Source of the DNA: a virus
Strand: one strand, 5' to 3'
IMG/VR virus record: IMGVR_UViG_3300037478_000708
Coordinates: 64,001-128,000 of that record
Length of the DNA stretch: 64,000 nt
The translations under genes were made by a program, and so were the position numbers. Below the pieces are notes generated by a model that made no database searches, was not told where the DNA came from, and saw only the letters and a list, made by a program, of their open reading frames with translations. Below are positions 32,232 through 49,367 of this stretch, in pieces (the first letter of the stretch is position 1; each line of letters opens with the position of its first letter).

Positions 32232-32256
32232 AGCGATACCAGCCTTTCTGCCTCTC

Positions 32257-32286
32257 TCTTCGTCCTCCCGGAACCCGCGACTTGAG
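32257..32286 (-). promoter_or_regulatory. sigma28-like promoter P1
   Basis: CTCAAG-N16-GACGAAGA upstream of the DUF6927-like gene. Confidence 0.75.
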
Positions 32287-32295
32287 CCCAAAGGC

Positions 32296-32316
32296 CCAGT
32301 GACACGCTGTCACTGA
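32296..32316 (+). repeat. Dispersed palindrome copy 4
   Basis: CCAGTGACACGCTGTCACTGA, 9 bp from the -35 element of P1. Confidence 0.95.
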
Positions 32317-32513
32317 GCAGGGGGCACCTTGGGAAAGGTGCCGTACCTCCGGCAGACGACGCAGCACGCCGTCTCCGCGGCGACGCGTAGGGTCTCCTGC
32401 CGGCGAACCGGCCGGACCGCTCTACGCGCGCAGTCCTCGCTGCACACGTACTCCTGCGCGTCGGTGGCCAGGATCGTTACCCAGCGCGTCCGTTGTTGAT
32501 CGTAGGTCGGCAC
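32310..32513 (-). CDS. Small Cys-containing hypothetical protein
   Basis: 67 aa with CSEDC and CCVVC; fills the gap in the minus-strand operon. Confidence 0.4.
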   Translation of the reverse strand: MPTYDQQRTRWVTILATDAQEYVCSEDCARRAVRPVRRQETLRVAAETACCVVCRRYGTFPKVPPAQ

Positions 32514-32518
32514 GGGGG

Positions 32519-33067
32519 TTACCTCTTCAGCCGGGCGGAGAGCCCGTCGAGCCAGGCGATATCCGCGGCCGTCTGCGGATTACCGACCACGAGCCCGACG
32601 CGGCGCCAGCGGTTGTTGCCGAGGTACCTCATCTCGATCACCCACGTCTCGCGTATGGTGGCACCGAACGCGTTCTGCGCATCGACCCAGCCGTTCACGA
32701 CCCAGGTGCCGTCTCCGAGGTTGAGGGCGCTCTCGCTCGGCTTCTGGTACTCGCCACCGCCGAACCAGCCGGCCGATCCGAAGTCGGCCGTCGACGGCGA
32801 GCGCAGCGCGCTCGTCACGAAGTCCTGCGCCATGACCCACGCGTCGACTGCATCGACCGTGCTGGGCTTCGCCTTGGGCTTCGGTTTCGGTTTGGGCGCC
32901 TCGGTCTCCTTCGCGCTTGCGGCGAAGCTCTTGCTCTCGGTCGTCGTCTCGCTCGCGGCGAGACCCTTGCCGGTCGATACGCGCGGCGTGTCTTCGTCGA
33001 AGCCGAGTGCGATCCCGAGGAGCAGTCCGGCGAGCACGACGATGCACATAAGCGTTCGTAACTTCAT
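32519..33067 (-). CDS. Membrane-anchored / exported protein
   Basis: N-terminal TM helix MKLRTLMCIVVLAGLLLG; LRSPSTADF...VDAQNAFGA motif. Confidence 0.75.
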   Translation of the reverse strand: MKLRTLMCIVVLAGLLLGIALGFDEDTPRVSTGKGLAASETTTESKSFAASAKETEAPKPKPKPKAKPSTVDAVDAWVMAQDFVTSALRSPSTADFGSAGWFGGGEYQKPSESALNLGDGTWVVNGWVDAQNAFGATIRETWVIEMRYLGNNRWRRVGLVVGNPQTAADIAWLDGLSARLKR

Positions 33068-33405
33068 GGTCTTTGAGTAGGGGGTCGCGTTTCGTCGAAA
33101 TTGACCGGACCGCGATCCGCGTTCCGGACGTGGTAGTTGGGGTCGTCGGGGGGCGCCGGGATCCGAACGTTGGGCGCCTGCGCCCCGCCGATCCGAACGG
33201 ACGTGAGCTTGTCGTTCGGGGAGGCTGCCCGGACGGCGCGGTGATACGCCGAAACCGTCGACCGACGAACGTTGCCCCCGCAGACCGGGCACCTGACGGG
33301 AGACGCGCCGCGCGTGCCCAGACAGGCGGATCCGTGGTGCGGAACCCGAACGCGATAGAACGCTCGGCAATCCTCGCACCGGCCGACGGAGTTGATCTTG
33401 CTCAT
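33064..33405 (-). CDS. Zn-ribbon hypothetical protein
   Basis: CEDC and CPVC; coupled to its neighbours. Confidence 0.6.
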   Translation of the reverse strand: MSKINSVGRCEDCRAFYRVRVPHHGSACLGTRGASPVRCPVCGGNVRRSTVSAYHRAVRAASPNDKLTSVRIGGAQAPNVRIPAPPDDPNYHVRNADRGPVNFDETRPPTQRP

Positions 33406-35456
33406 GCTTCACCGACCTGCCGGCGGTACTTGCGAGCCATCTTGACGGCCGCCGCCCACTGCTTGTCCGACAGCAGTCCGCGCGACTCGATCTGCGCGGC
33501 CAGGGAGTGACCGAACTCGCCGTCGAGCTTGTTGAAGCCCATGCCGTTGATCTCCTGCGCCCTGTCGGGATCCATCGAGGCGAGTTGGACCAGCGCCCGA
33601 GCGGCGTGCTCCTCGACGGCGTTCGCGGCCGAGCGGAACTTGCCGCTGACCTGCAGCTCGCGGCCGTCGTAGGCGGAGCCCAACGAGCGCTTGACGCTCG
33701 CGACCGCCTGCTCGGCCTGCTCCGCGGCTTGCCGCGCGACCTCTGCGTTGCGGGCCTCGACCTCGGTCAGGACGGCGGCCGACTGCTCCGCGGCGCGCGC
33801 GAGCGCTTCCGCGGGCGACGCGCCAACGTAGTCGGCCTCGACCGCGCTGGCTTCGACGCTGGCCTCGATGATGCGCTGCTTCTCGGTGAGCAGCTCGACG
33901 ACGCGGGCGTCGACGGCGTGACGCGCGACGAGCCGCTTGACGACGACGCCGCGGTCTTGGCCGATCCGGCACACGCGGTCTTCCGCTTGTTGGTTCAGCG
34001 CAGGAGTCCAGTTCAGATCGACCATGAGCAGGTGGCTCGCCTTGGTCAGCGTCACGCCCACGCCCATCGCGCCGATCGTTCCGGCGACGCCCTTCAGCTC
34101 GCCGGCCTGGAAGCGCTCGACGATCCGGCCGCGCTCGTCGAGGGCGGTCTCGCCCGTGATGACCGCCCACCCTTCGCGCTGGCGCAGCGCTTCGACGGGA
34201 GCGGTGTGAGCGGAGAAGACGACCAGCGGCTCGTCCGCCTCTTCGTACTCCTCGACCAGCTCGAGCATGGCCGGGATCTTGGCCGTGGCCAGCGCCGCGC
34301 GGGCGCGCGAGAGCTGCTCGAAGGCGGCCCCGGTGATCTTGGTCGCCGCGACGTCCGCGTCCGCGTCGTTCAGGTCGATGCCGCTCTCGGCCAGGGTCTC
34401 GAGCACGGCGTCGCACAGCTTGCGGGTCTTCGCGTCGAGATCATTGACCTCGATGTCCTGACGGACCTTGGTCGGCAGCTCGGGCAGCACCTCGAGCCGA
34501 CGGCGGTGCAGCATGACCTTGCGCAGGACGTCGGGGACCTCCTCGCTCGGCTGACCCCAGTCGTAGCCGTACTGCCCCTTGCGGCCGTCGAACAGCCGCA
34601 CGAAGTTGTACCAGTTGCCGAAGGCGGCTTCCGCGAGCCCGGCGGCCTTGAGGACGTGCCACAGCTCCGGCGGGCGGTTCAGGAGCGGCGTGCCGGTGAT
34701 GAGCCACACGCGACCCTGGCTCGCGCTCACCTGCTCGCGAAGCCCCTGCCAGCGCGCGGTGCGCTTGGCCCGGGGGTTCTTCAAGAGGTGCGCTTCGTCG
34801 GCCATCATGACCATGCCGACCGGCGGCATGCCCGGGATCTCTTCGGGGTCCGGCATCACGCCGTAGGTCGCGATGACGACCTCACCCGCGACCGGCCAAC
34901 GGAACTGCCGGCGCGACGCCACGACGGCCGGGGACAGGTCGGGGCGCCACCGGCGGACCTCACCCTCCCACGCGAAGCGCACCGCGCCCGGCACGATGAC
35001 CAGAGCAGCGGCGTTGTCGGGCAGTGCGAGGAGCGCCTGAACGGTCTTGCCGAGACCCATCTCGTCGGTGAGGAGCGCGCTCATGCGCGGGGCGATCCAC
35101 TCGACGCCCGTGCGCTGGTAGGGGTAGAGCGCTTCGCCGCGCTCGGCCAGGGCCACGTCGACCTTGGCGAGACGTTCGCGGCCGGCGGAGAGGAGCGCGG
35201 TCGCCTCCGCGGCCTGCTCGCGCAGACGCTCGGCGACGGCACGGTCGACCTCGACCGGGAGCCCCGCGTCCGTGAGGCCCGCGAGGATCTGCGGCACGGC
35301 GTCGACCGGCGCGCGGTTGGCCTTCTCCGCCGGCACGAAGCGCGCGCCGTTGGAGAAGCAGACGTCCCGGTAGGCGCCGAAGCGGTCGCCGCCGAGGTAG
35401 GCGGTGAGCTTGAGGGTGACCGTTTCGCCGGTCGGATCGAGAGTGAGCTGAATCAT
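33402..35456 (-). CDS. SNF2-family helicase/translocase
   Basis: LYPYQ..G, DEMGLGKT, DEAH.LKN, TGTPLLN, RR....L.ELP, GVGVTLT, WTP...QAEDR..RIGQ. Confidence 0.95.
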   Translation of the reverse strand: MIQLTLDPTGETVTLKLTAYLGGDRFGAYRDVCFSNGARFVPAEKANRAPVDAVPQILAGLTDAGLPVEVDRAVAERLREQAAEATALLSAGRERLAKVDVALAERGEALYPYQRTGVEWIAPRMSALLTDEMGLGKTVQALLALPDNAAALVIVPGAVRFAWEGEVRRWRPDLSPAVVASRRQFRWPVAGEVVIATYGVMPDPEEIPGMPPVGMVMMADEAHLLKNPRAKRTARWQGLREQVSASQGRVWLITGTPLLNRPPELWHVLKAAGLAEAAFGNWYNFVRLFDGRKGQYGYDWGQPSEEVPDVLRKVMLHRRRLEVLPELPTKVRQDIEVNDLDAKTRKLCDAVLETLAESGIDLNDADADVAATKITGAAFEQLSRARAALATAKIPAMLELVEEYEEADEPLVVFSAHTAPVEALRQREGWAVITGETALDERGRIVERFQAGELKGVAGTIGAMGVGVTLTKASHLLMVDLNWTPALNQQAEDRVCRIGQDRGVVVKRLVARHAVDARVVELLTEKQRIIEASVEASAVEADYVGASPAEALARAAEQSAAVLTEVEARNAEVARQAAEQAEQAVASVKRSLGSAYDGRELQVSGKFRSAANAVEEHAARALVQLASMDPDRAQEINGMGFNKLDGEFGHSLAAQIESRGLLSDKQWAAAVKMARKYRRQVGEA

Positions 35457-35480
35457 GGAAGGTGTCTCCTGACTCTCTCC

Positions 35481-35510
35481 CTATCGACGTTCGGGCAGTC
35501 CCGCGTGAAG
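35481..35510 (-). promoter_or_regulatory. sigma28-like promoter P2
   Basis: CTTCAC-N16-GTCGATAG upstream of the SNF2 gene. Confidence 0.65.
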
Positions 35511-35686
35511 TCGATCGGCGGAAATCGCGAGATTCCTCGCCGTCAGCGGGAAGAGCTTTCCCTGCGCGAAAGAGGCAGAGCCGCAGTCAAGTCCACCGGG
35601 GCGGAGATGGAGGGAGGGAGAGATGACCCCCCGGTCTGACCGGGTTTTCACCGGTTCGGAGCATGCTGCGACTCTGCCAGAAAGGT

Positions 35687-35760
35687 TGGTGGATCGGACG
35701 GGGATCGAACCCGTTCGAGGGGTGTCCAAGCTCCCCGCGGACTCGCCAGAGACCCGGCCC
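35687..35760 (-). tRNA. Degenerate tRNA-like RNA (possible Pro-TGG) with encoded CCA
   Basis: GGGCCGG...ACGGG-TTCGATC-CCCGT-CCGATCC-A-CCA: perfect T arm, 6/7 acceptor pairs, loop CTTGGAC; D and anticodon stems aberrant. Confidence 0.55.
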
Positions 35761-35770
35761 ACCGAGAGCG

Positions 35771-36634
35771 CTAGTTGCGGCTCTCGTTGAACGCGAGAGC
35801 GGCGGTGCCCTCGCGCTCGTCTTCGACGAGCTTGCCCACCTCGAAGCCGTAGGCGTCGGTGATGACGCGCGGGAAGCCCTTCACGCCGCGCTCCATGAGA
35901 CGCGGGCTGCTCCACGTCTTCGCGACCTCGGTGACCGCGTTGACGAGCGACCAGAGGTTGCGCGGCCCGAACGCCTCGTGGTACGGGTTCTCCTCGTCGA
36001 GGTACCCGCGGTACACCGCGTCGATCTTGCCGAGCTGACCCCACGCGAACGCGTTGCGACGCGCACCCTCCATGAGGAGACGATCGACGCGTTCGTCGGT
36101 GACCTCTTCGCCGAAGAGGAACTCGAGCAGGCGCTTGGCGTCCGTGGCCTGCTGCGACCAGACCTCCATGCCCTCGGAGATCCCCTGCTCCATGCGCTCG
36201 ACGTTGCCGGAGGTCGTCTTGAAGCCGAAGAGGAAGTCGCCGACGATCATGCCGTTCGCGCAGACCGCGACGCGCTCCCCGTGCACGCCGTACAGACGCA
36301 TGCGCTGCATGTTGGAGTGGCGGAAGCCGACCTCCGGCGTGATCCCACCGGAGCCCGGCAGGTCGGGCATCGACGGCGCGCTCGCCGGGTCGAAGCGCAG
36401 GAAGCCGTAGATGTCGTGGCCGTCGTCGCTCGTGCAGAAGCTCTCGCTCTCCACCCGCAGACCGATTCTCTTCGCGGCCGACTCGATCTCCTCGATCAGC
36501 TCGAGGTGTGGGATGGGCTTCCACCGGCTGCCGGCGCGATCGTCCTTGCGCTGCACGCGCAACTCCTCGACGGTCGGGACGGCGTAGTCGCGCAGGGCGG
36601 CGCGCGTGACCATGTTCTTGCTCGGATACAGCAT
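35771..36634 (-). CDS. DUF932/DUF945-like protein
   Basis: WKPIPH.ELIE, GFRHSN, RV.VCANGMIVG, NLWSLVNAVTE. Confidence 0.8.
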   Translation of the reverse strand: MLYPSKNMVTRAALRDYAVPTVEELRVQRKDDRAGSRWKPIPHLELIEEIESAAKRIGLRVESESFCTSDDGHDIYGFLRFDPASAPSMPDLPGSGGITPEVGFRHSNMQRMRLYGVHGERVAVCANGMIVGDFLFGFKTTSGNVERMEQGISEGMEVWSQQATDAKRLLEFLFGEEVTDERVDRLLMEGARRNAFAWGQLGKIDAVYRGYLDEENPYHEAFGPRNLWSLVNAVTEVAKTWSSPRLMERGVKGFPRVITDAYGFEVGKLVEDEREGTAALAFNESRN

Positions 36635-36858
36635 CGGTCTCTCCGTTGGTGTCGGGTTCGTGAGGGCCGGATTAGCTCCGGCCGCGCCTTGCTTTCACTC
36701 AACCCTACCGAGCCGCTGGAGCGCGTGCGGGGCAAATCTTGAGAAAACCCGCTCCCAGTCGGCAGAAATCCCGCTCGTCCGCCGACCGCGGGTCGGTGCG
36801 CGGGGTAAGCTCCGGGTGTCCGCAAGGAACCCCGATCTTGCATCCAAGGAGTCCTGTA

Positions 36859-37284
36859 ATGGCGCTCGACTACAGCAACCCCCAGGTCAGAGAGACCGCC
36901 GACCTGTACTCTCAGGCCCTTCGGGCGGAGCGGGAGTTCCGCTGGGAGGATGCGATCGGGCTGTACCAGCAGTGCGCCGACGCCTATGAAGCTCTCCCTC
37001 GGGAAGCGAAGAAGCCGACCAGGGTGGAGTTCGCCGTGTTCCTGATGGGCGGCGGCGTGAGCGGTCTCGGATCCCGCGCGTGCGAGCGAGCGCTGCGTCT
37101 CATTGGGATCGAAGCCGATCCGGACGTGCTCCGTGACCTGCATGAGGACTGGAAGCAACGAGCCAGGGATCCGTACCTGCCGTCAATGTCGGATGAGCTG
37201 CGTAGGCGCGTGCAGGGGAAGTGGCGGGAGGCCGTCGTCGCGCTCGAGGCTCGTCACCCGTTCCTGAAGAAGAGGGCGCGCTGA
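36859..37284 (+). CDS. Hypothetical helical protein
   Basis: ATG with RBS AAGGAG, 141 aa. Confidence 0.7.
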   Translation: MALDYSNPQVRETADLYSQALRAEREFRWEDAIGLYQQCADAYEALPREAKKPTRVEFAVFLMGGGVSGLGSRACERALRLIGIEADPDVLRDLHEDWKQRARDPYLPSMSDELRRRVQGKWREAVVALEARHPFLKKRAR

Positions 37285-37315
37285 TGGAGGTCGAGGCAGG
37301 ACGATCCGAGATCGG

Positions 37316-37345
37316 CTAAAGTTCGGATGGCGTCTCCGCCGACAA
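37316..37345 (+). promoter_or_regulatory. sigma28-like promoter P3
   Basis: CTAAAG-N16-GCCGACAA upstream of the GHKL ATPase gene. Confidence 0.75.
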
Positions 37346-37387
37346 GGGAGAGGACAGGGCTTCGGCCCACAACGGAGGACTACAGGC

Positions 37388-38914
37388 ATGGCGAAGGACA
37401 ACTGGTTCGCGGTCGACCGCAAGGGCATGGCGCAGGTGCTCGCCCGACGGTCCAAGGCCGCCGCGATCTTCGAGCTGATCTCGAACGCGTGGGACGCGCC
37501 GGGTGTGACGGAGGTCAACGTGTACCTGCGCGCGGTCGAGGGCCGAGCGCTCGTCGACCTCTCGGTCGTGGACAACTCGCCTGAAGGCTTCCTCGATCTG
37601 GAGGAGGCCCGCACGCTCTTCGCGCCGAGCCGCAAGAAGAGCGACCCGACGCAGCGCGGGCGCTTCAACCTCGGCGAGAAGCTCTTCCTCGCACTCTGCA
37701 CCGAAGCGCGCATCACGAGCATGCGCGGCTCGTTGATCTTCTCGGAGGACGGCAGCGTCAGCCGCTCGCGTCAGTTCCGCGAGATCGGCACCGAAGTCTC
37801 CGCGCGCTTGCGCATGACGCGGGCGGAGCTGGCGGAAGCCGACGGTGAGCTGAGCAACCTCGTCAGCCCCGCAGGCATCGTCACGCGCATCGCCATGAGG
37901 TTCGGCGACGGGGTGCAGGACGTCGACGTGACGCAGCTCGCGCCCGTCCGGCCGGAGGTCGTCTTCACGGCCGCCCTGCCGACCGAGCTGGCCGGCGCAG
38001 ACGGAGAGCTTCGGCCGACCGTCCGCCAGACCGAGGTACAGGTCTGGCGTGCCGACGTCGGTCGGCTCTACGAGATGGGCATCCCGGTCGTGGAGATCGA
38101 GGGCTCGCTCTCGTTCAACGTGATGCAGAAGATCCCGCTCACGATCGACCGCGAGAACGTCAAGCCCGCCTTCCTGCGACGCGTGCGCGTCGAGGCGCTC
38201 AACGCCCGGCCGGCGCTCGTGCGCGAGAAGAACGAGGCGGAAGAGGTGTGGGTCACCGAAGCCCTGGGCTCGAGCAACCCGCGGCCGACCTCCGACCTGA
38301 TCGAGTACGTCATGGACCTTCGCTTCGGCAAGAAGCGGGTCTCGTACGACCCGAGCGACGTCGAGGGTTCGCAGCTCGCCATGAGCAAGGGCTACACGGT
38401 CGTCTCGGGCGGAGCGCTCCCGCGCGAGGTCTGGACCAACGTTCGGGAGTCGGAAGCGATCAAGCCGGCCGGACAGGTCACGCCGTCGAACCGTGTGCAG
38501 TTCAGCGCGACGGGCAAGGACGTCACGGTCGACCCCGCGAAGGTGCCGGGAGCGCCGGAGGTCATCGAAGCCTTCCGGCGTATCGGCGAGATGCTGCTCG
38601 GCTTCCCGGGGGACCTGCGCGTCGACCTCCTGAACGATCCGCGCAACTACGGTGCGTGCTACGGCAAGCGCATGCTGCACCTGAACCTACGCCGCCTCGG
38701 CCGCGCCTGGTTCCGGACCGCGCTCGACGACGGGCGTCTCGGCAAGGACCACCTCAAGCTGCTCGTTCACGAGCTGGGCCACGACTACGCCGAGAGCCAC
38801 CTCGACGAGGGCTTCCACAAGTCGCAGACCGAGCTGGGCGTGGTGCTCGCGCTGCTCGTGGCCGAGCACGGGCCGGACCTGCTCCAGCTCGAGCTGTCCG
38901 AGGTGTGGCCGTGA
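37388..38914 (+). CDS. GHKL (HATPase_c) ATPase fused to a C-terminal zincin-like HEXXH domain
   Basis: ELISNAWDA, V.DNSPEGF, LF..S.K......RGRFNLGEK, GT.V; C-terminal LLVHELGH.....H...F. Confidence 0.85.
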   Translation: MAKDNWFAVDRKGMAQVLARRSKAAAIFELISNAWDAPGVTEVNVYLRAVEGRALVDLSVVDNSPEGFLDLEEARTLFAPSRKKSDPTQRGRFNLGEKLFLALCTEARITSMRGSLIFSEDGSVSRSRQFREIGTEVSARLRMTRAELAEADGELSNLVSPAGIVTRIAMRFGDGVQDVDVTQLAPVRPEVVFTAALPTELAGADGELRPTVRQTEVQVWRADVGRLYEMGIPVVEIEGSLSFNVMQKIPLTIDRENVKPAFLRRVRVEALNARPALVREKNEAEEVWVTEALGSSNPRPTSDLIEYVMDLRFGKKRVSYDPSDVEGSQLAMSKGYTVVSGGALPREVWTNVRESEAIKPAGQVTPSNRVQFSATGKDVTVDPAKVPGAPEVIEAFRRIGEMLLGFPGDLRVDLLNDPRNYGACYGKRMLHLNLRRLGRAWFRTALDDGRLGKDHLKLLVHELGHDYAESHLDEGFHKSQTELGVVLALLVAEHGPDLLQLELSEVWP

Positions 38915-39048
38915 CGGTGCGCCCCGTCTTCGCGTGGTACGACCTGTGGGTCGGTGCCTTCTACGACCGCGCCAAGCGTCGGCTGTACGTCTTGCCCCTG
39001 CCGTGCCTCGGGCTCGTCATCGACTTTAGAGGAGGACGATCAACATGA
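38911..39048 (+). CDS. Small hydrophobic phage protein
   Basis: FAWYDLWVGAFYD....LYVLPLPC; GTG overlaps the upstream stop. Confidence 0.6.
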   Translation: MTVRPVFAWYDLWVGAFYDRAKRRLYVLPLPCLGLVIDFRGGRST

Positions 39049-39266
39049 ACATGCGTGAAGAAGAACTCGCGGCGCTCGAAGCCCACCGTGCCCAGGTCGA
39101 AGAGGCGTGCGAACAGATCGATCGCGCTGTCGCAGAGATCGAGGCGTCCGCCGGTCGCATCGAGACCGCCGGCAACCCCGAGTTAGCTCAGCGCCTCCGG
39201 TTACGTGCGGACGTGCTACGCGGGAAGCAGAGGGAGCTGCGCGATGGGATCCGCTCGCCGGGCTAA
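39045..39266 (+). CDS. Small coiled-coil protein
   Basis: RBS GGAGG, 73 aa. Confidence 0.6.
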   Translation: MNMREEELAALEAHRAQVEEACEQIDRAVAEIEASAGRIETAGNPELAQRLRLRADVLRGKQRELRDGIRSPG

Positions 39267-39792
39267 GGAACAGCGTCGCAAGGCGCGCAAAGAGAAGCAG
39301 GCCGTGAAGCGCGAGCGCGTCTGCGGAGAGTGCCGCGCGTGCTGCACGGTGCTCAGCATCCCCGAGGTCGACACGCCCGCGGGCACGCCCTGCCAGCACG
39401 AGTGCGACAAGGGCTGCGCCATCTACCGGGTGCGTCCGAAGCGCTGTCAGGAGTTCTCCTGCGGTTGGCTCCACGGTGTCGGCCGCTCTGCGGATCGCCC
39501 CGACAAGGCGGGCTGGTTCGTGTCGGTGGAGCGACAGACGTCGCGGCTCTTCGACGTCGTTGGCGGCGCGAACGCCTCGAACACGCTCCTCGTGGTCCGG
39601 GCGTTCCGTTCGGGCAGCGTGGACACGCCGGAGTTCCGTGCGCTCCTGCGGGGATGGGTCGAGCGAGGCAGCGCGGTGCTCGTACTTGAGCGGAACGTGG
39701 TCGACGGGGCTTCGTGGCTATACGGCCCGCGCTTCCCCAAAGGCGTTCAGATCCCGACGCGAGACATCTCCGGCGTGCAACCGAGGACGTGA
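39244..39792 (+). CDS. CxxCxxCC (YkgJ-like) Zn/Fe-cluster protein
   Basis: CGECRACC...C.H....GC.IY..RP..C..F.C.W. Confidence 0.8.
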   Translation: MGSARRAKEQRRKARKEKQAVKRERVCGECRACCTVLSIPEVDTPAGTPCQHECDKGCAIYRVRPKRCQEFSCGWLHGVGRSADRPDKAGWFVSVERQTSRLFDVVGGANASNTLLVVRAFRSGSVDTPEFRALLRGWVERGSAVLVLERNVVDGASWLYGPRFPKGVQIPTRDISGVQPRT

Positions 39793-40467: not shown

Positions 40468-40493
40468 GGCCCGCGGGATTCGGTCCGGTTTCG

Positions 40494-40523
40494 CTCAAGT
40501 GATGCGCAGGCGGCGGCCGATGA
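40494..40523 (+). promoter_or_regulatory. sigma28-like promoter P4
   Basis: CTCAAG-N16-GCCGATGA. Confidence 0.8.
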
Positions 40524-40544
40524 GGAGGGCGTAGGAAAACACCA

Positions 40545-41711: not shown

Positions 41712-41761
41712 CCCGGAGCGCCGCCCTGTGCGTCGGTGACTCCCTCTTCAAGGACCGACGC

Positions 41762-42739
41762 ATGAAGCACTTCTTCGACCCCGACCTGCCTGAGCCGCTG
41801 ATCGTCAACTTCGGCGGCGGTGTGGACTCGACGGCGATTCTCGTCGGACTCACGCGCCTCGTACGCGACGGTGACGAGTCCGCCCGTCCGGACCTCGTGC
41901 TGTTCGCCGACACCGGAGGCGAGCTGCCGGCGACGTACGAGAACGTGGAGCGCATGTCGAAGTGGCTTCGCTTCCGCGGGTTCCCGTCCGTGACGACCGT
42001 CAGCCGTCCGTCCGAGATCAAAGGCCGCGTCGGCTACACGACGCTCGAGGAGAACTGCCTCGAGAACGAGACGCTACCCAGCGAAGCGTTCGGTCGTGGC
42101 GCGTGCAGCTCGAAGTGGAAGCACGAGCCGATGGACGCGTTCCTCTTCGGCCGCAAGCGTCCGTACAAGCAAGGCTGGCTTGAGGCCAACGGCTTCGCCG
42201 GTCTCAAGCCGACCAAGCTGATCGGCTACGACGCGACCGAGACGAAGTGCGGCAAGCGCGGGAAGTGGGCCAAGGTCAGCGAGGACGCCGTGGCGAAGTA
42301 CCGGTTCCCGCTCGTCGAGTGGGGCTGGACGCGCGAGCGCTGCATCCAAGAGATCGCGCGCGAGGGCCTGCCGGTCCCGGTGAAGAGCGCGTGCTTCTTC
42401 TGCCCCAATCAGCAGGTCGAGGAACTGCGCGCGATCGCGGAGCACTCCCCGGAGCTGTTCCTGCGCGCGCTCGTGATCGAGCAGGTCGCCCACATGGGCC
42501 GGCACGGCCTGCACTCGATTGAGGGCCTGTGGAGGCGCACGAGGAAGACCGACCGCCGGCCGGGGTCCTGGGTGACCTGGGCTCAGCGCGAGGGCCTCCT
42601 AGAGGCCGCAGAGCGCGCCGTGGGCAAGACCCTGGAGGAAGCGGTCGCCGATGCCAAGCCGGACCTGGCGTCGAGCCCGCGGGCCGCAGAGCGGCTCCGC
42701 GGACTTCGGGTGGACGAGCCGTCTTGCGCGGGAATCTGA
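41762..42739 (+). CDS. PAPS-reductase-like (PP-loop) protein
   Basis: VNFGGGVDSTA, FADTGGE, C..KWK..P, IGYD, RFPL.EWGW.R..C, KSACFFCP. Confidence 0.85.
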   Translation: MKHFFDPDLPEPLIVNFGGGVDSTAILVGLTRLVRDGDESARPDLVLFADTGGELPATYENVERMSKWLRFRGFPSVTTVSRPSEIKGRVGYTTLEENCLENETLPSEAFGRGACSSKWKHEPMDAFLFGRKRPYKQGWLEANGFAGLKPTKLIGYDATETKCGKRGKWAKVSEDAVAKYRFPLVEWGWTRERCIQEIAREGLPVPVKSACFFCPNQQVEELRAIAEHSPELFLRALVIEQVAHMGRHGLHSIEGLWRRTRKTDRRPGSWVTWAQREGLLEAAERAVGKTLEEAVADAKPDLASSPRAAERLRGLRVDEPSCAGI

Positions 42740-42766
42740 CGACCCGCTCCAGATTCTCCGGGTACG

Positions 42767-42796
42767 TTTCAGGTGGGAGCGGTCAACGGTCGAAAG
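42767..42796 (+). promoter_or_regulatory. sigma28-like promoter P5
   Basis: TTTCAG-N16-GTCGAAAG. Confidence 0.6.
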
Positions 42797-42818
42797 AGAG
42801 GGAGCAGGAGGCATCACC

Positions 42819-43187
42819 ATGAACCAACAACTGACTCCCGAGGAGCGCGTCGGCCGCCACCTCGCCTACCGCCGTCGAATCGGCGAACAGGCGTTTCAGG
42901 TCGAGCACTACCTCGCGCTCTGGAAGAGCGCCCCGACGGCTGCCAACTGGCGGCGCGTCGTCGAAGCGGCCGAGGCGTACTACCCGCTCCTCGATGACGA
43001 GGGTCCGGAGGCGCTCGCTCGCCGGCTGCGCGCGGGGCAACGCATCTACTGGACGTTCGCTCGTTGTGGCGGCGTGTCCGGTTCGGTGCGCACGGGGCTC
43101 GGTCGCTTCACGCGAGCGGGCGCGCGCGGAAGGCTCTACGAGCAGCGCTTCCGCAAGGGGTCGAGGAGCTGGACGAAGGAGAGCTGA
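42819..43187 (+). CDS. Hypothetical protein
   Basis: ATG with RBS AGGAGG after P5. Confidence 0.65.
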   Translation: MNQQLTPEERVGRHLAYRRRIGEQAFQVEHYLALWKSAPTAANWRRVVEAAEAYYPLLDDEGPEALARRLRAGQRIYWTFARCGGVSGSVRTGLGRFTRAGARGRLYEQRFRKGSRSWTKES

Positions 43188-43190
43188 GAG

Positions 43191-43604
43191 ATGAACGCCA
43201 TGCAACGAACCCACGATCTCACCCGCGACGCGGATCTGCTCCACGCCGCGCTCTACCACTCCTCGCCCGCGCGCTTCGCGCTCGACGGCCGTCAACGTCT
43301 GCAAGCCTTCGTGCTCTGCGACGGCTACGGGTCGCGCTCGGCCGACGAGCTGATCGAGGCCGGGCTCACCGCAGACTGGTCGCACGTGCGCGACTCCAGC
43401 GACGAGGCCCGCGTGCGCGCGGCGGCCTACGTTCGCGAACAGCTTGGGTCCGTCGGGCTCGCCAAGGTGGCGCAGCTCCTCGGACAGGCGCCGCTCTGCG
43501 CGGTCTGTGAGGCGGTGGAGGGCACCGTCGACGCGCAGTGGGATCATCGCGAGGTCAAGGTCTGCGCAGACTGCTTCGAGAACGAGACGGGAGACAAGCC
43601 GTGA
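43191..43604 (+). CDS. Hypothetical protein with C-terminal Zn finger
   Basis: DWSHVRDSS motif; CAVC...CADC. Confidence 0.65.
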   Translation: MNAMQRTHDLTRDADLLHAALYHSSPARFALDGRQRLQAFVLCDGYGSRSADELIEAGLTADWSHVRDSSDEARVRAAAYVREQLGSVGLAKVAQLLGQAPLCAVCEAVEGTVDAQWDHREVKVCADCFENETGDKP

Positions 43605-43834
43605 CGGAACAACTGCATCTGCGCGAAGACGGGACCGCGAGCCACTGGACCATGACGCGCCGCGAGTTCTTCGCGACGCACACCGACTTCCGCAACAAGC
43701 CCGGACGGACGGACATGCCGATGCGGCTGGCGCTCTGCCCCAAGGGGGGTACGGTGAGCGTGACGGTGCAGTTCGTCTGCGCGCACGGGGTCGCCGAGAA
43801 GGCGCGCTGCGAGGCGTGCGGAGAGGCGCGGTGA
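43601..43834 (+). CDS. Small hypothetical protein
   Basis: GTGA coupling; HTDF+ motif. Confidence 0.55.
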   Translation: MTEQLHLREDGTASHWTMTRREFFATHTDFRNKPGRTDMPMRLALCPKGGTVSVTVQFVCAHGVAEKARCEACGEAR

Positions 43835-44211
43835 TGGCGAGCTACCGCTACGGAGTGAAGTGGATCGCCGAGAACGACGAACCGCTCGACACCGATCCCG
43901 AGTCGGTGTCGGGGTTCATCTCGGTTCTTCTGCTCGCCGACCTGTTCGCGCGGGACCCGGAGGACGTCGCCCGTGACGTGCTGCTCCTGCGTCTCGACGC
44001 CTACGCGACTCCTCCCGGCGAGTACATGCACATCCGCGGGGGTGGAGAGGTCTATCACTACGGCCGCGTCGAAGCGTACGCGGACCCGCTCTGCGGCAAG
44101 GCGCTTCGCGGGGTGGGTCCCTGCAATCCGCCGAATCGGGAGGTCTCACCGAACGCGACGCTCTGCCCGCGGTGCAAGAAGGCCGCGCTGGAACGGATCG
44201 GAACGGCGTGA
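43834..44211 (+). CDS. Hypothetical protein
   Basis: MASYRYGVKWIAEND...V.LLADLF; C-terminal LCG..CPRC. Confidence 0.6.
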   Translation: MASYRYGVKWIAENDEPLDTDPESVSGFISVLLLADLFARDPEDVARDVLLLRLDAYATPPGEYMHIRGGGEVYHYGRVEAYADPLCGKALRGVGPCNPPNREVSPNATLCPRCKKAALERIGTA

Positions 44212-44429
44212 CGCGTCCGCTCACGAGGCACCTCGCCGCCGAGCTGCGCCGCGCGGTGAACGCGACGGGGACGTACGACCCGCGCATCGCGCTGGTCGTG
44301 ATCGAGGAGTGGCTGACAGCGGAAGAGTTGGAGGACGCGGAGGCGTTCCTCAAGTGGATCTATCAGCGAGGGCTTACCTTCGGGCACAACATCTTTGAGG
44401 TCTGGGAAACGTGGCAGAGGTTGACATGA
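44208..44429 (+). CDS. Small hypothetical protein
   Basis: Coupled; FL.W......TFG..N motif. Confidence 0.55.
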   Translation: MTRPLTRHLAAELRRAVNATGTYDPRIALVVIEEWLTAEELEDAEAFLKWIYQRGLTFGHNIFEVWETWQRLT

Positions 44430-45163
44430 GGTACGCGCGAACCGCGGCGGAGGTCGCGAAGATCATCGGCATTCCCGTCGAGCGCTGGCCGGGGCAGTGC
44501 TACGGCATCGCGAGCGCGATGCTCAAGCACGAACTCATCGACGACGAGACGGCTGAGCTGCGCTACGGGCACTGGCTCGGGCCGGTCAGCGAGAAGTGCC
44601 CGGTGGCGCGCTTCCGCGAGAGCCACGCGGCCGGCACGCCGTTCCAGCGGCACGGGTGGATTGAGATCCCCGTGGACCCCTACACGCGCGCCTGCGCGAC
44701 CTGCGCGCACATGGAGGACGAGCACGAGAGTTCGTTCCTGGCTCCGTGCGCGCACTGCACCTGCCCGAGCTTCGAGCCTGAAGAGGCGCGCATCGTCGAT
44801 CCGACGCGTTGGGTCTTCGAGGGGGTCGAGCCCTACGTGTACGAGGGTCCGAACGACTACTACGACATGGGCGGCAATCGCTACCGTGAAGCGAACGAGC
44901 GGCCGTGCCCCCCGTACCGCTCGAGCGCGGACCGCGTGTGCCTGGACATCTGGAAGCACGATCGCGATGCGCACCGATTCGTGCTGGACGAGCTTCTCGG
45001 CTCTGCGCCGGGCATCACGCAGGAGATGGCCTTCTGGTTGGCCAACCTCTCCCTCTCGCGCCTGGGTTCGCACGCGCACGCGATCTACTCAGGACTGCGA
45101 GATGTGGGGCTCAAGGCGCGCGTGCCGATCGACAACTGGCGGGCCGTGATGGGTCAGGATTAG
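44426..45163 (+). CDS. Hypothetical protein, possible transglutaminase/papain-like fold
   Basis: GQCY..A...HGWI...IVDPT (Cys-His-Asp spacing) with an inserted Zn ribbon. Confidence 0.6.
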   Translation: MRYARTAAEVAKIIGIPVERWPGQCYGIASAMLKHELIDDETAELRYGHWLGPVSEKCPVARFRESHAAGTPFQRHGWIEIPVDPYTRACATCAHMEDEHESSFLAPCAHCTCPSFEPEEARIVDPTRWVFEGVEPYVYEGPNDYYDMGGNRYREANERPCPPYRSSADRVCLDIWKHDRDAHRFVLDELLGSAPGITQEMAFWLANLSLSRLGSHAHAIYSGLRDVGLKARVPIDNWRAVMGQD

Positions 45164-45193
45164 CTCAAGTCGGAGACCCCGCGCGGTCGAAGA
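45164..45193 (+). promoter_or_regulatory. sigma28-like promoter P6
   Basis: CTCAAG-N16-GTCGAAGA. Confidence 0.8.
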
Positions 45194-45233
45194 GGGGCGT
45201 ACAACGGGACACCGAAATCAGGAGAACCGAACC

Positions 45234-45539
45234 ATGCAACATCGATTCGCCAAGCCCGAGCCGCACGTCTTTCAGGGTCCGCCCTTGTGGTGGGCCACCC
45301 TTGATCCGCTTTCGGGTGACGGCCGTCCGGGCTGCGGACTGCTTCCCGGCTGGCGTCTGGAGGTCTTCTGCGGCCCCGTGCTGCGCTATCGCGAGACGTA
45401 CGTCGATCGTCCTCGCGTGATCGAGGACGCGCGAGCGGACGCGGACGCGTACATGAACGGGCGCGTGCCCGAGTGGCGCGCGGCCGTCGTGGGCGGGCTG
45501 ACCCTCGAGGATCTGGATCTGTCGAGGGAACCCGCGTGA
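45234..45539 (+). CDS. Hypothetical protein
   Basis: RBS AGGAG, first gene after P6. Confidence 0.6.
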   Translation: MQHRFAKPEPHVFQGPPLWWATLDPLSGDGRPGCGLLPGWRLEVFCGPVLRYRETYVDRPRVIEDARADADAYMNGRVPEWRAAVVGGLTLEDLDLSREPA

Positions 45540-47017
45540 ACACGACCTACGAAGAGGCGGGGGTCATTCCCTCCATCAGCATCGATGCGCTCCTGGCCGC
45601 CCGAGACGGCGCGCACGCGGCGTTCCTCGAGGCCAAGCGGTTGCTCGACGCCGCTGCCGAGCGTCTCCAGGCGTTCGGTGTTCGGCTTCCCGACGTCGAG
45701 GTCGAGTTCCCGGGGAACACGTACCGCTCGCTGCGTGACGAGCGCTACGCGGAGCCGATCGCGAACGAGATCGACCGATTCGTCTGGCTGCAGCTCTTCA
45801 AGCTGACGAACATCGATACGATCATGGACCACAAGACGCGCAACGAGCTGTTCGAGCGGCTCCACCGTTCGCGCGCGTACCTGTCCGATCAAGACGACGC
45901 GCTGCCGCCGCTCACGAAAGAGAACATCGAAGCGACCTTCGCGGCCGTGCACGCGCAGCAAGGCGAGTTCTTCGAGAAGTGCGTCGAATCCGTCTACAAC
46001 TCGCTGAGCTGGGATCACAAGACCAACGAGCCCGCGAAGATCGGCGACAAGCTCATCGTCAACGGGGCCTTCTACCAGTGGTCGCGCGCTCTGCAAGGGA
46101 ACACGGTCTCGCTGAACAATCACGAGAGCCTGCACGACCTCGAGCGCGTCCTGTGCATCCTCGACGGGCAAGCTCCGCCGACGCACGGTACGGGCCTGCG
46201 CGCGCTTCAGCGGATCCCCTACGGACAGTGGGTCGAGGTGCCGAGTCCCAGCGGCGGCGCTCCGCTGCTTCAGGTCAAGTGCTTCCGCAAGGGCACGACG
46301 CACGTTCGGATCCTGAACACGCGGCATGTCGACGCCATGAACAGGATCATGGCGCACCGGCACCCTGGCGCGATCCCGGAGCCGGCCGAGTCGAAGGCTT
46401 CACGCCGTCGCGGCGAGGCTCAGCGGCCCGTGGCTTCGACGGCCGTCGCGAAGAGCGAGAAGGCCGCGCGTCAGGCGTTCTACACGCCCGAAGACCTCGC
46501 GGCCGAGCTGGTCGAAGCGGCCGGCGTGGGTCGCGGAGATCGCGTGCTCGAGCCCTCGGCCGGTGAGGGCGCGATCGTCCGCGCGGCATTGCGCCGTGGT
46601 GCCGCGCACGTGACGGCCGTCGAGAACGACCCTCGCGCCGTTGAGCTGCTCGGCTACCTCGCGGAACGCGTGGCCAAACGCGGCCATAACGCGGTGCGCG
46701 TCATCGGGTGCGACTTCTTCGACTTCAAGATCCGGACGCTGGAGGACCGCTTCGACGCCGTGGTCATGAACCCTCCGTTCGCCAACGCGCAGGAGGTCGA
46801 GCACGTTCTCCGTGCCTGGACCTACGTGAAGCCCGGAGGCCGGCTCGTGTCGGTCATGTCGGCTGCCGCGGCGAGTCGTCAGACCGGCCGCTATGGGGCT
46901 CTCGCCGCGTTCCTCGAGAAGCATGGCGCAGAGATCCGACCGCTCGCTCCGGGCGCGTTCAAGGACGCCGGAACGGACGTCAACACCGTCATGGTCATCG
47001 TCGAGAAGCCGGCATGA
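45536..47017 (+). CDS. DUF4942-like domain fused to an amino-DNA methyltransferase
   Basis: LSWDHKTN.P.KIG.K.I, L.DLERV...LDG, +CF+KG..H; then FYTP, VLEPSAGEG, MNPPF, KPGGRLV. Confidence 0.88.
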   Translation: MNTTYEEAGVIPSISIDALLAARDGAHAAFLEAKRLLDAAAERLQAFGVRLPDVEVEFPGNTYRSLRDERYAEPIANEIDRFVWLQLFKLTNIDTIMDHKTRNELFERLHRSRAYLSDQDDALPPLTKENIEATFAAVHAQQGEFFEKCVESVYNSLSWDHKTNEPAKIGDKLIVNGAFYQWSRALQGNTVSLNNHESLHDLERVLCILDGQAPPTHGTGLRALQRIPYGQWVEVPSPSGGAPLLQVKCFRKGTTHVRILNTRHVDAMNRIMAHRHPGAIPEPAESKASRRRGEAQRPVASTAVAKSEKAARQAFYTPEDLAAELVEAAGVGRGDRVLEPSAGEGAIVRAALRRGAAHVTAVENDPRAVELLGYLAERVAKRGHNAVRVIGCDFFDFKIRTLEDRFDAVVMNPPFANAQEVEHVLRAWTYVKPGGRLVSVMSAAAASRQTGRYGALAAFLEKHGAEIRPLAPGAFKDAGTDVNTVMVIVEKPA

Positions 47018-47253
47018 GTCGCTACACGGGTGCGGGCAGCTACGGTCACCGCGTCAGGTCCACGGCATACCCTGATGAGTTCGTGATTCGCTGGACGTAT
47101 GACCGCTACTACAGCGGGAGCCGCTTGCGCTTCCCGCAATGTCGCGAGAGGTGGACGGACCGCAAGGGAGCGCTGCGCTTCGCGAAGAAGTGGGGTCTTC
47201 GCGGAAAGGACTCCGGCGGCCTGATCCCCGAGAAAGCCGGGCGCCTGACATGA
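47014..47253 (+). CDS. Small hypothetical protein
   Basis: ATGA coupling; GSRLRFP...A.RFAKKWG. Confidence 0.6.
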   Translation: MSRYTGAGSYGHRVRSTAYPDEFVIRWTYDRYYSGSRLRFPQCRERWTDRKGALRFAKKWGLRGKDSGGLIPEKAGRLT

Positions 47254-47633
47254 ACGTCTCCGAAGCGATCGCGATCGTCAGCCGGCTCACCTACAAGCCG
47301 GGCTGGTCGCTCCAGGCGTACCCCGAGCCGCACACCGGCGGTCTGATCCTTCGCTTCGGGAAAGACGAGCCTGACAGCGAGAAGGGCGGCGACGCCGTGC
47401 GTCCGCTCATGTACACGACGCAGATCCCGAAGCAGCGCCTTGATGACTTCTCGCGAGATCTCTTCTTGCGGACCGTCTTCGCTACCGTGACCGCGCGGGA
47501 GCTGCACGAGGTCGAGGAGTGGCTCCGCCTGGATGGGGAGCCGCTCTTCGAGCCGCATCCGGAGACGGGGCACCGTGGCGTCTTGGGGGACGGCACGAGC
47601 CTCGTGCCCGTTCTTCGACATTTCCTCAAGTGA
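47250..47633 (+). CDS. Hypothetical protein
   Basis: YKPGW, ELHE..EW.R.DG...F.PH motif of small phage proteins. Confidence 0.65.
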   Translation: MNVSEAIAIVSRLTYKPGWSLQAYPEPHTGGLILRFGKDEPDSEKGGDAVRPLMYTTQIPKQRLDDFSRDLFLRTVFATVTARELHEVEEWLRLDGEPLFEPHPETGHRGVLGDGTSLVPVLRHFLK

Positions 47634-47654
47634 CGCGCGGTCGCATGCCGATGA
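47625..47654 (+). promoter_or_regulatory. sigma28-like promoter P7
   Basis: CTCAAG-N16-GCCGATGA. Confidence 0.8.
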
Positions 47655-47675
47655 CGTCTGTGGAGGCAACATCCC

Positions 47676-48122
47676 ATGCAGATCGAGATCCCGACCAACA
47701 GCAACGTCTTCCGTCACCTTCGCGACGGGGTGGCCGAAACTCCGGCCCTCACGCTCCCGAAGGCGACCATCTACCTGCCGAACGAGTTCTTCGGCAACTG
47801 GGTTCGCGTCGAGGTGCGCAACCTCGTCGTCTACCAGGCGCAGTACGCGCAGTACCCCTCGGCGTTGCACGTGACGTACGTGCCCAAGGGCAAGCGCAAG
47901 GCGCGCTCGCGGACCTTCGGTGCCTACCCGCGTCTCGTCGTCTACGAAGGCTGGGGAGCCGGTCCGGAGCCCGAGAGCATGCTCGGCGAGCTGCGGCAGG
48001 AGGGCTCCGTCACCGTGCGGTCCTCCCGGCGCGCTTCCTGCGATGCCGGCTGGGACGTGGAGATGCGGCGGCGCGTCGAGGCCGCGGAAGGTCGGCCGGT
48101 CTTCTCGGTGTTCGTGAGCTGA
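47676..48122 (+). CDS. Hypothetical protein
   Basis: RBS GGAGG; YAQY..A....Y.PKGKRK.R motif. Confidence 0.7.
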   Translation: MQIEIPTNSNVFRHLRDGVAETPALTLPKATIYLPNEFFGNWVRVEVRNLVVYQAQYAQYPSALHVTYVPKGKRKARSRTFGAYPRLVVYEGWGAGPEPESMLGELRQEGSVTVRSSRRASCDAGWDVEMRRRVEAAEGRPVFSVFVS

Positions 48123-48155
48123 GCCCCGATGACGGGACGCTCGGAAGAAAAGGCC

Positions 48156-48185
48156 CTAAAGGTCCGACCGCCGTTCGGTCGATGA
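48156..48185 (+). promoter_or_regulatory. sigma28-like promoter P8
   Basis: CTAAAG-N16-GTCGATGA. Confidence 0.8.
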
Positions 48186-48207
48186 GGGAGTATTAGGAGG
48201 CAACGTC

Positions 48208-48798
48208 ATGAGAGTCATCGAAGTCATCCCCGCGCGCCGTTGGCGCAACGTCGTGAACGGCCGCGCCGTGAGCATCTACGGCTGCGTGCCGTGGACGAGC
48301 GACGCCGAGAAGGCCGACTGGACCCTGGAGACGTCCGGTTGGACCTGGCGCAACGACAACGGAACCGTCGGTCTCAGCCGGCCGCCCGCGAAGACGCGCG
48401 AAGAGGCCGAGCAGATCATGCGGACGTTCAACAACCTCGGAGTCGAGTCGGGAGACGGCGTGAAGAAGAGCATGAAGAAGCGACTGACGCCGCAGGAGTC
48501 CGCGAAGCGCCTTCGCAGTCGCCTCAAGAAGAGCTTCCCCGGCGTGAAGTTCTCGGTCCGTCTCTCGCGAGGCACGGCCTACGGCAACGTGAGCGTGCGC
48601 TGGTCGGAAGGCCCGCCCTTCTACGAAGACGTCGCGAAGGTCGCGCTGCCCTACGAGGGCAAGAGCTTCGACGCGATGACGGACTCGACGTCGCACCACG
48701 AGCGACCGATCGGAACGGAGGACGGAACGGTCCTGCTCTCCGGGCTCGGCTACGTGCTCCTCCACGGCCCCTGGCGAGCGGCGGGAGTGCAGCCGTGA
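48208..48798 (+). CDS. Protein with C-terminal LPD29-like domain
   Basis: AK.LR..LKK.FPGVKFSVR...V.W..GP...Y.G..FD.M.D. Confidence 0.75.
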   Translation: MRVIEVIPARRWRNVVNGRAVSIYGCVPWTSDAEKADWTLETSGWTWRNDNGTVGLSRPPAKTREEAEQIMRTFNNLGVESGDGVKKSMKKRLTPQESAKRLRSRLKKSFPGVKFSVRLSRGTAYGNVSVRWSEGPPFYEDVAKVALPYEGKSFDAMTDSTSHHERPIGTEDGTVLLSGLGYVLLHGPWRAAGVQP

Positions 48799-49187
48799 GC
48801 AAGCCTCTGATCCACGACGAGCAGGGGCTCCGTGGCGCGACCGTGAACGGCTACAAGGTCCGCGTCTGGGACGACGGCTCAGGTCCCCTGTGGGTCCTGC
48901 TGGAGACGCTAGGCGTCACCGGCATCGTGCGTGCGGAGACCTTGGAGAAAGCCTTCGTCTGCGCCGTGGATGAGATCATGGACGACGCAGATGAGTCCGA
49001 CCCCGACAACCGCCCCGATGAGCACGGCAACCTTCCCGAGGGCCTGCACTACCGCGGGAGCGGCGTCCCCAGCCAAGAAGGGCTGGAGAGCCCTGTGGCG
49101 CAGGAGGACGTGAACGGCAGCCGCCTGGAGCGTCTGACGCCTGAGCTGGCCGAGGAGCTGCGCGTAGAGGTCGTGCTCTCCACGTGA
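48795..49187 (+). CDS. Acidic hypothetical protein
   Basis: GTGA coupling; DDG.GPLW...GIVRA motif. Confidence 0.6.
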   Translation: MSKPLIHDEQGLRGATVNGYKVRVWDDGSGPLWVLLETLGVTGIVRAETLEKAFVCAVDEIMDDADESDPDNRPDEHGNLPEGLHYRGSGVPSQEGLESPVAQEDVNGSRLERLTPELAEELRVEVVLST

Positions 49188-49212
49188 TACGCTGACCTCG
49201 TTGGGTGGAAGC

Positions 49213-49233
49213 CCGGTGACAGCGTGTCACTGG
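49213..49233 (-). repeat. Dispersed palindrome copy 5
   Basis: CCGGTGACAGCGTGTCACTGG, intergenic before P9 and the GGDEF gene. Confidence 0.95.
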
Positions 49234-49337
49234 ACATTGCGTGTGCATCGGGGCAACGCGGTCTCGTCAGCCGCGCTTGCCGATTCTCCTGAGTGACGAG
49301 CGACCCCTGGAGTCCTGTTCTCCAGGGGTCGTTTTCG

Positions 49338-49367
49338 CTTCAGTCCCGTTGCCGCCCTGGTCGATGA
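49338..49367 (+). promoter_or_regulatory. sigma28-like promoter P9 (likely leaderless GGDEF transcript)
   Basis: CTTCAG-N16-GTCGATGA; GTG start 7 nt downstream. Confidence 0.75.

Follow-up and report, generated by a model that had tools for sequence, protein, structure and literature searches.

A putative promoter class with sigma-28-like elements and an invariant 16-nt spacer fronts the accessory genes of a T4-like phage

Phages normally take over transcription through the housekeeping sigma factor of the host or through factors of their own. Promoters of the sigma-28 family join a TAAA/TCAA(G) −35 element to a GCCGATAA −10 element with an essential CGA core, and in characterised systems the two are 14-15 nt apart. 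In E. coli, the FliA ChIP-seq table has the fixed-width form TAAAG/TCAAG-N14-GCCGATAA (PMC4183435), and the same FliA consensus is in use in Pseudomonas (PMC7286023). For Actinomycetota, a 2026 preprint gives T(A/C)AA-N16-GCCGATAA as the WhiG2 consensus and CTCA-N16-17-GCCGAACT as that of WhiG1, stresses the conserved CGA and predicts WhiG sites before diguanylate cyclases (PMC12871210). Here we describe a class of bipartite sites that resembles these promoters in both elements and departs from them in spacing, in an uncultured phage represented by the IMG/VR virus record IMGVR_UViG_3300037478_000708 (156,008 bases, 100% complete by CheckV's estimate). The window is the whole stretch of 64,000 nt that was analysed, bases 64001-128000 of the record, and window and genome coordinates are kept apart throughout.

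A first-pass annotation of the window had proposed nine such sites before accessory genes. All nine are read at the positions and on the strands listed here, each with exactly 16 nt between its hexamer and its octamer:

P1, window 32257..32286, minus strand: CTCAAG-N16-GACGAAGA, 25 nt 5' of the ATG of a 183-aa gene
P2, window 35481..35510, minus strand: CTTCAC-N16-GTCGATAG, 24 nt 5' of the SNF2 helicase gene, a position kept in the relative L183 (below)
SNF2-family helicase gene, window 33402..35456, minus strand: first gene behind P2, used as the query for relatives
P3, window 37316..37345, plus strand: CTAAAG-N16-GCCGACAA, 42 nt 5' of a 508-aa GHKL-ATPase-like gene
P4, window 40494..40523, plus strand: CTCAAG-N16-GCCGATGA, 21 nt 5' of a 242-aa gene (phrog_2433)
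P5, window 42767..42796, plus strand: TTTCAG-N16-GTCGAAAG, 22 nt 5' of a 122-aa gene
P6, window 45164..45193, plus strand: CTCAAG-N16-GTCGAAGA, 40 nt 5' of a 101-aa gene that is followed by the DUF4942-methyltransferase gene
P7, window 47625..47654, plus strand: CTCAAG-N16-GCCGATGA, 21 nt 5' of a 148-aa gene
P8, window 48156..48185, plus strand: CTAAAG-N16-GTCGATGA, 22 nt 5' of a 196-aa LPD29-domain gene
P9, window 49338..49367, plus strand: CTTCAG-N16-GTCGATGA, directly 3' of a hairpin and T-run, with a GTG at 49375, 7 nt on
GGDEF-domain (diguanylate cyclase) gene, 164 aa, window 49375..49869, plus strand: behind P9, opening with GTG

A scan of the whole genome adds two sites beyond the window, at genome 24432-24461 (−) and 42260-42289 (−), each 5' of a leftward gene or gene pair within the rightward late-gene region. 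The class consists of four leftward units and the first genes of seven rightward runs, and each of the 11 good sites faces the start codon that comes next on its strand, the orientation that the first annotation had claimed. Its further claim that the tail and replication modules lack the motif agrees with the same scan, which has no site in those modules of the window. A twelfth match scores high as well, but at genome 32073 it covers the stop codon of one giant gene and the start codon of the next; it is doubtful and is not counted.

The motif stands out against both shuffled and coding DNA, the comparison on which its first description was to be judged. A weight matrix built from the nine sites gives 12 matches above 16 bits at a spacer of 16, against 0-3 at the other spacers from 12 to 20. 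The scores jump from 13.9 to 16.4 bits with nothing between, and all matches above this gap are intergenic or at gene junctions, while essentially all below it lie within genes. A loose consensus that covers all nine first sites, [CT]T[ACT][AC]A[GC]-N16-G[ACT]CGA[ACT][AG][AG], has 13 matches in the genome, compared with a mean of 1.2 and a maximum of 6 in 200 dinucleotide-preserving shuffles; at other spacings from 10 to 22 it has 0-4 matches each, with one intergenic in total. At N16, 11 of the 13 are intergenic, in a genome that is 93% coding and 6.6% intergenic (184 genes, called by a model of codon usage that was trained on long open frames of the same genome), for which the binomial probability is 7e-12.

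Aligned, the sites read (T-rich, often TTTCG)-CT[CAT][AC]AG, 16 unconserved bases and G[TCA]CGA[TAC][GA][AG], with purine-rich sequence (GGAG, GGGAG) 3' of the octamer. The octamer keeps its CGA in 11/11 phage sites and in both sites of L183, and every phage hexamer has T at position 2 and A at position 5; the hexamer is CT[CA]AAG in 7 of the 11 and [CT]TTCA[GC] in the remaining 4. From octamer to start codon there are 7-43 nt over the 11 sites (21-25 nt at six, 34-42 nt at three and 10 nt at one), and a gene start at the GTG at 49375 would put P9 at 7 nt, a leaderless geometry. A standard sigma-70 scan of window 31500-51000 found no consensus promoter. We consider it highly probable that these sites form a functional promoter family.

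Two other sites have similar elements. A weak one resembling this class (class B), CTAAAG-N16-TTCGACTT, lies at genome 5950-5990 (L010) in a 261-nt gap of a small-gene region and scores below the threshold. The sole intergenic match at a spacing other than 16, CTAAAG-N14-GTCGAAAA, is outside the window at L014 ~3050-3085 (genome ~129050-129085), in the gap 5' of a gp32-like SSB gene, and ends 2 nt before the SSB ATG; it may be a chance match, or the start codon may be mis-called.

The phage elements compare closely with those of known sigma-28 promoters. The hexamers conform to TAAA/TCAA(G), and the octamer, G-[CTA]-CGA-[TAC]-[GA]-[AG], conforms to GCCGATAA with its CGA core. The proposal that these are sigma-28 promoters is supported in part: hexamer and octamer resemble FliA/WhiG elements including the invariant CGA, and the spacer is off the characterised modes. 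That spacer had been put at 1-2 nt longer than known modes, and E. coli FliA sites, the actinobacterial WhiG consensus and our survey of phyla (below) all bear this out: in WhiG counting the phage motif is TCAA-N17-GYCGA, which exceeds the E. coli form by 2 nt and WhiG2 by 1 nt. With the FliA/SigD promoters of Proteobacteria and Bacillus (TAAAG-N14-GCCGATAA), the phage sites share a TMAAG −35 element, a GCCGATAA-like octamer, strict orientation and a fixed spacer; they differ in a spacer of 16 rather than 14, in an octamer that ends in GA rather than AA, and in lying in a phage, where they drive non-flagellar genes. With actinobacterial WhiG sites they share the CTCA/TCAA −35 and GCCGA −10 elements and the high-GC genomes (PMC12871210), and one phage site drives a GGDEF gene much as WhiG sites are often predicted before diguanylate cyclase genes (PMC12871210). 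However, N16 counted from hexamer to octamer is rare in Actinomycetota (3/74 sites in 151 genomes), and the phage pattern is unenriched there. On these resemblances, a factor of the sigma-28 family is the best-supported identity for the protein that reads the promoters, and we think it reasonably probable.

Such a factor would have to come from the phage or from its host. Pfam searches of the whole record in six frames give no Sigma70_r2 match at E<=1. The only Sigma70_r4 match is weak, below the cut-off, and falls in the helix-turn-helix of a NUMOD4/HNH homing endonuclease, and two weak below-cut-off matches to r4_2 fall in a small HTH protein and in a ParB-like protein. A six-frame search of the record with the T4 gp55 PHROG families 234 and 12791 found nothing. 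The searches found no sigma gene across a 156-kb record that CheckV estimates to be 100% complete, which speaks against the suggestion that the phage carries its own sigma-28 homologue outside the window. A factor supplied by the host is favoured on two grounds: these searches turned up no sigma in the phage, and sites of the same grammar stand in bacterial chromosomes. The endonuclease gene itself (NUMOD4, HNH_3 and helix-turn-helix; window 22046-22633, minus strand) is a lone leftward gene in the tail module and has no class-B promoter.

The spacing offers a way to ask which bacteria use this grammar. In genomes sampled from six phyla we looked for exact matches to CTMAAG-N(13-18)-GCCGATAA and tallied the spacers by hand from the match coordinates; the counts for spacers 13, 14, 15, 16, 17 and 18 are as follows:

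Pseudomonadota, 151 genomes: 7, 67, 22, 5, 13, 11; 125 matches, control about 55
Actinomycetota, 151 genomes: 4, 23, 33, 3, 4, 7; 74 matches, control about 28
Planctomycetota, 121 genomes: 5, 23, 38, 23, 9, 13; 111 matches, control about 35
Acidobacteriota, 91 genomes: 4, 5, 12, 0, 1, 1; not above control
Verrucomicrobiota, 91 genomes: 4, 4, 7, 0, 2, 2; not above control
Myxococcota, 91 genomes: 2, 5, 7, 4, 0, 4; not above control

The unpublished genomes G244, G087, G323, G125 and G724 contribute one match each to the Actinomycetota or Acidobacteriota tallies, and the conclusions are independent of them. As expected, the commonest spacer in the survey is 14 in Pseudomonadota and 15 in Actinomycetota; in Acidobacteriota it is also 15. 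Among the six phyla, a spacer of 16 is clearly over-represented in Planctomycetota only (Fisher 6e-6 against the other five pooled; Poisson 7e-5 against the flanking spacers). The phage's own degenerate pattern at N16 has 103 matches against 60 in the control in the 121 planctomycete genomes (binomial 5e-4); the 401 actinobacterial genomes searched have 76, with about 70 in the control. Individual planctomycete genomes of large size and high GC are especially rich: G608 gives 7 matches against 1 in the control, and four of the 7 carry GTCGATGA, the phage's commonest octamer. A relaxed search for CTCAAG-N13-18-GCCGAT in five planctomycete genomes was too noisy for a spacing peak.

We fetched 40 planctomycete N16 sites, which are mostly intergenic. 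The Pfam-matched genes that follow them encode PilM in two genomes, SpoIID-domain proteins in two genomes and a flagellin, as well as TPR/SPOR proteins, a histidine kinase, two glycosyltransferases, a PrsW protease, a LysM-YkuD L,D-transpeptidase and an FtsW/RodA-family protein. Because they recur before orthologous genes in different genomes, we take these sites to be real promoters, and the loci do not come from mis-binned phage contigs, for none of them resembles the phage at the protein level. Native sites (CTMAAG-N16-GYCGAWRA) agree with phage sites in hexamer and spacing, in octamer variants (GCCGAAGA and GTCGATGA), in a leader that begins GGAG-rich and in a short distance to the ATG. 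Indeed, several sites in G609 and G634 read CTCAAG-N16-GCCGAAGA-GGAG... and are followed after 18-28 nt by an ATG, an arrangement like that of the phage cassettes. The native sites differ in fronting cellular pili, cell-wall and division genes and in lacking the phage's T-rich upstream stretch. A FliA/WhiG sigma above the NCBI curated cut-off is present in 5/5 planctomycete genomes checked, and in 3/5 additional paralogues score above it or narrowly miss it, giving one to three per genome. Since part of the Planctomycetota has a native class with the same 16-nt spacing, a planctomycete is the leading host candidate, though on this sequence match it is a lead that we hold tentatively.

Within single planctomycete genomes we also observe two sigma-28-type spacing classes (L186, L187, L190 and L197 against L198-L237), with N14-15 before flagellin and N16 before pilM, spoIID-like, FtsW/RodA-family and L,D-transpeptidase genes. 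Judged from these sequences, each planctomycete FliA/WhiG paralogue may have its own spacing. A phage copy of the host flagellin promoter was considered as the origin of the motif and is rejected, as the flagellin promoters of four N16-bearing planctomycete genomes have spacers of 14-15.

The motif is conserved in one relative. The SNF2 protein has many homologues at 57-61% identity, and a degenerate DNA pattern for its lineage-specific C-terminus retrieved eight metagenome stretches. One of these, L183, is part of a 23.6-kb JGI contig of 71% GC whose SNF2 protein is 59% identical and which has no other gene in common with the phage. Its SNF2 gene is directly preceded by CTCAAG-N16-GCCGATAG, and 760 nt upstream a second site, CTAAAG-N16-GCCGATAG, precedes a frame of 38 codons; at both sites (L183:694-733 and 1453-1492) an ATG begins exactly 7 nt after the octamer. 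With P9 (window 49338-49377), three sites have a start codon exactly 7 nt past the octamer, an arrangement that suggests leaderless mRNAs beginning at the start codon. Searches of IMG/VR for loci with single proteins gave no relatives, a contig scan with generic SNF2 patterns gave no close relative, and a search of IMG/VR for the ParB palindrome of the phage gave one contig, which is unrelated.

Taking these results together, we lean, by a small measure, towards a host factor of the sigma-28 family that reads a single promoter class in a phage whose host is plausibly a planctomycete. Several observations weigh against this. Known sigma-28 systems space their elements by 14-15 nt and the phage always by 16 nt, beyond the mode of every characterised system. 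The comparison with flagellin promoters of the predicted host, called for in the first-pass annotation, also went the other way, with spacers of 14 or 15 rather than 16 in four candidate planctomycete genomes that also bear N16 sites (G610, G577, G666 and G620), and N16 promoters may be read by a different paralogue or by some other sigma. The motif is absent in the SNF2 relatives L184 and L185 (groundwater), L181 (ocean) and those in IMG/VR (<=50% identity); because these lack it, it is confined to a narrow set of high-GC phages rather than spread over the whole SNF2 family. The planctomycete excess is moderate and comes from a sample of six phyla. Profile searches could miss a highly divergent phage sigma or a sigma-redirecting protein. 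Finally, no independent link to the host was found, a capsid-protein search of 301 planctomycete genomes giving one remote match. In G577, a homologue of the T4-type major head protein (G577:C23:52719-53735; L243, L246) is 30-34% identical; it lies at the end of a 53.8-kb contig that has no motif and is otherwise dissimilar to the phage, and it is no closer than Bacillus phages.

Three other explanations deserve consideration. The sites could be middle-type promoters read through a phage factor that profiles miss, either a divergent sigma or a sigma-appropriating activator that redirects host polymerase in the manner of T4 MotA/AsiA. SPO1 gp28 and T4 gp55 are divergent phage sigmas that once went unrecognised, and most of the ~184 phage genes have no annotation; furthermore, the phage sites are unusually uniform, have a T-rich upstream stretch that planctomycete sites lack, and cluster in one region as temporal classes do. 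We nonetheless think this unlikely, as the record, taken as complete on CheckV's figure, yields no match to Sigma70_r2 or the gp55 families and no convincing one to r4, ordinary cellular genes of planctomycete chromosomes are preceded by this bipartite motif at the same spacing, and L183 has the motif with one shared gene, suggesting that the host sets the motif.

Alternatively, a different alternative sigma of the host, an ECF or other group-3 factor, could read sites that are merely sigma-28-like. ECF promoters carry the signatures AAC and CGT, whereas a GCCGAT-like −10 element with invariant CGA and a TMAAG −35 element are signatures of sigma-28, and one planctomycete flagellin gene does have an N16 site; we therefore regard this as improbable, even if the phage spacing is closer to an ECF-like geometry (16-17 nt) than to classical sigma-28 and the flagellin promoters of the candidate phylum use spacers of 14-15. 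Least probable is an operator for a regulator or a conserved translation or leader element. The fixed position just 5' of start codons and the purine-rich sequence after the octamer would fit such an element, but the two halves are asymmetric, the 16 bases between them are unconserved, the orientation is strict, and the sites head gene runs where no other promoter is recognisable.

If a host sigma-28-family factor does read the sites, the class, (T-rich)-CTMAAG-N16-GYCGAWGA, would start short transcription units of accessory genes. Host RNA polymerase carrying a factor of the FliA/SigD/WhiG kind would use the hexamer for its −35 contact and the octamer around the invariant CGA as an extended −10 element, and transcription would start ~7-8 nt past the octamer. 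The outcome would be a leader of 14-36 nt with a GGAG ribosome site or, where the start codon is 7 nt past the octamer, a leaderless mRNA. With the factor coming from the host, as the phage apparently has no sigma of its own, expression of the accessory region would be tied to a host state in which that sigma is free, for example a swarmer or envelope-remodelling state, and the accessory genes would probably be expressed only when the host's factor is active. The link to a motile or developmental cell state drawn in the first-pass annotation is plausible on this account. By analogy with RsiG-WhiG of Actinomycetota (PMC12871210), the GGDEF protein behind P9 could feed back through c-di-GMP.

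The genes behind the promoters encode, besides the SNF2 helicase and a weakly GHKL-ATPase-like protein, a DUF4942-methyltransferase, an LPD29-domain protein, a sensor-less GGDEF protein, a weak PAPS-reductase/SspD-like protein and many proteins with no match; most of these downstream genes have no recognisable function. The early timing and the anti-defence role that the first-pass annotation proposed for them are conjectural. Several genes in the window resemble defence or DNA-modification genes:

Window 52099-53859, plus strand: DpdF-like helicase (E 1e-109)
Window 33402-35456, minus strand: DpdE/ZorD-like SNF2 helicase
Window 41762-42739, plus strand: weak SspD/PAPS-reductase-like protein
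Window 45536-47017, plus strand: mad2-like methyltransferase fused to DUF4942

From their similarities, the DpdF-like, DpdE/ZorD-like, SspD-like and mad2-like proteins may together form a DNA-modification module.

Elsewhere the phage uses another grammar. Word enrichment in upstream regions yields CTGTAGA/TGTAGAC in addition to the known ParB palindrome, defining a second class, cTGTAGAC-N17/18-TAnnnT, with TAGAC in place of TTGAC. GTAGAC has 15 copies on the plus strand, 14/15 of them intergenic; they lie mostly 5' of structural genes, from genome 58 to 89488, often beside a ParB palindrome, with TAnnnT (TACACT, TAGACT, TACTAT) 17-19 nt downstream. The class has about 13-15 copies, all on the plus strand, among them:

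Window 3436-3480, 17250-17287 and 25488-25530, plus strand: cTGTAGAC-class sites
Genome 58, 25052, 39837, 43472, 50816, 57276 and 62807, plus strand: cTGTAGAC-class sites

Its geometry, read from the sequence, is sigma-70-like. Since this class fronts structural genes, the phage has at least two promoter grammars, with the sigma-28-like one for accessory genes. The arrangement recalls T4, in which early (sigma-70), middle (MotA/AsiA) and late (gp55) genes have distinct promoter classes; the phage differs in that no gp55, MotA or AsiA homologue was found in it, its structural genes use the sigma-70-like TGTAGAC-N17/18-TAnnnT, and its accessory class resembles a host alternative-sigma promoter.

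The phage (GC content ~66%) is by sequence a distant T4-like myovirus that encodes a T4-type major head protein, a head protease and a tail sheath. Its major head protein is <=32% identical to that of any cultured phage, and neither megablast nor tblastn found a close relative among cultured phages, with no relative at the DNA level. Rfam and ARAGORN found nothing in the promoter region. A tRNA-like 3' half (GGTTCGATCCCC...CCACCA) at window ~35640-35730 (minus strand), where neither program calls a gene, may be a tRNA remnant.

Pursued to its end, this reading would describe a lytic T4-like phage of Planctomycetota that wires its whole accessory region to an N16-using sigma-28 paralogue of the host controlling pili, cell-wall remodelling and division, so that the region fires at a specific stage of a dimorphic life cycle and a sensor-less diguanylate cyclase feeds back via c-di-GMP; this full picture is speculative, and we think it doubtful as a whole. 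The 16-nt spacing is of use as a clue to the host, setting the motif apart from proteobacterial and actinobacterial sigma-28 sites and pointing to Planctomycetota, a phylum from which, as far as we know, few phages are on record. The survey also suggests two sigma-28-type spacing classes alongside two or three FliA/WhiG paralogues in planctomycete genomes. A full-text literature search found no described phage regulon driven by a host sigma-28, which is no proof that none exists. If the reading is true, a block of ~35 phage genes would be conditional on the state of the host cell, through a flagellar or developmental sigma factor.

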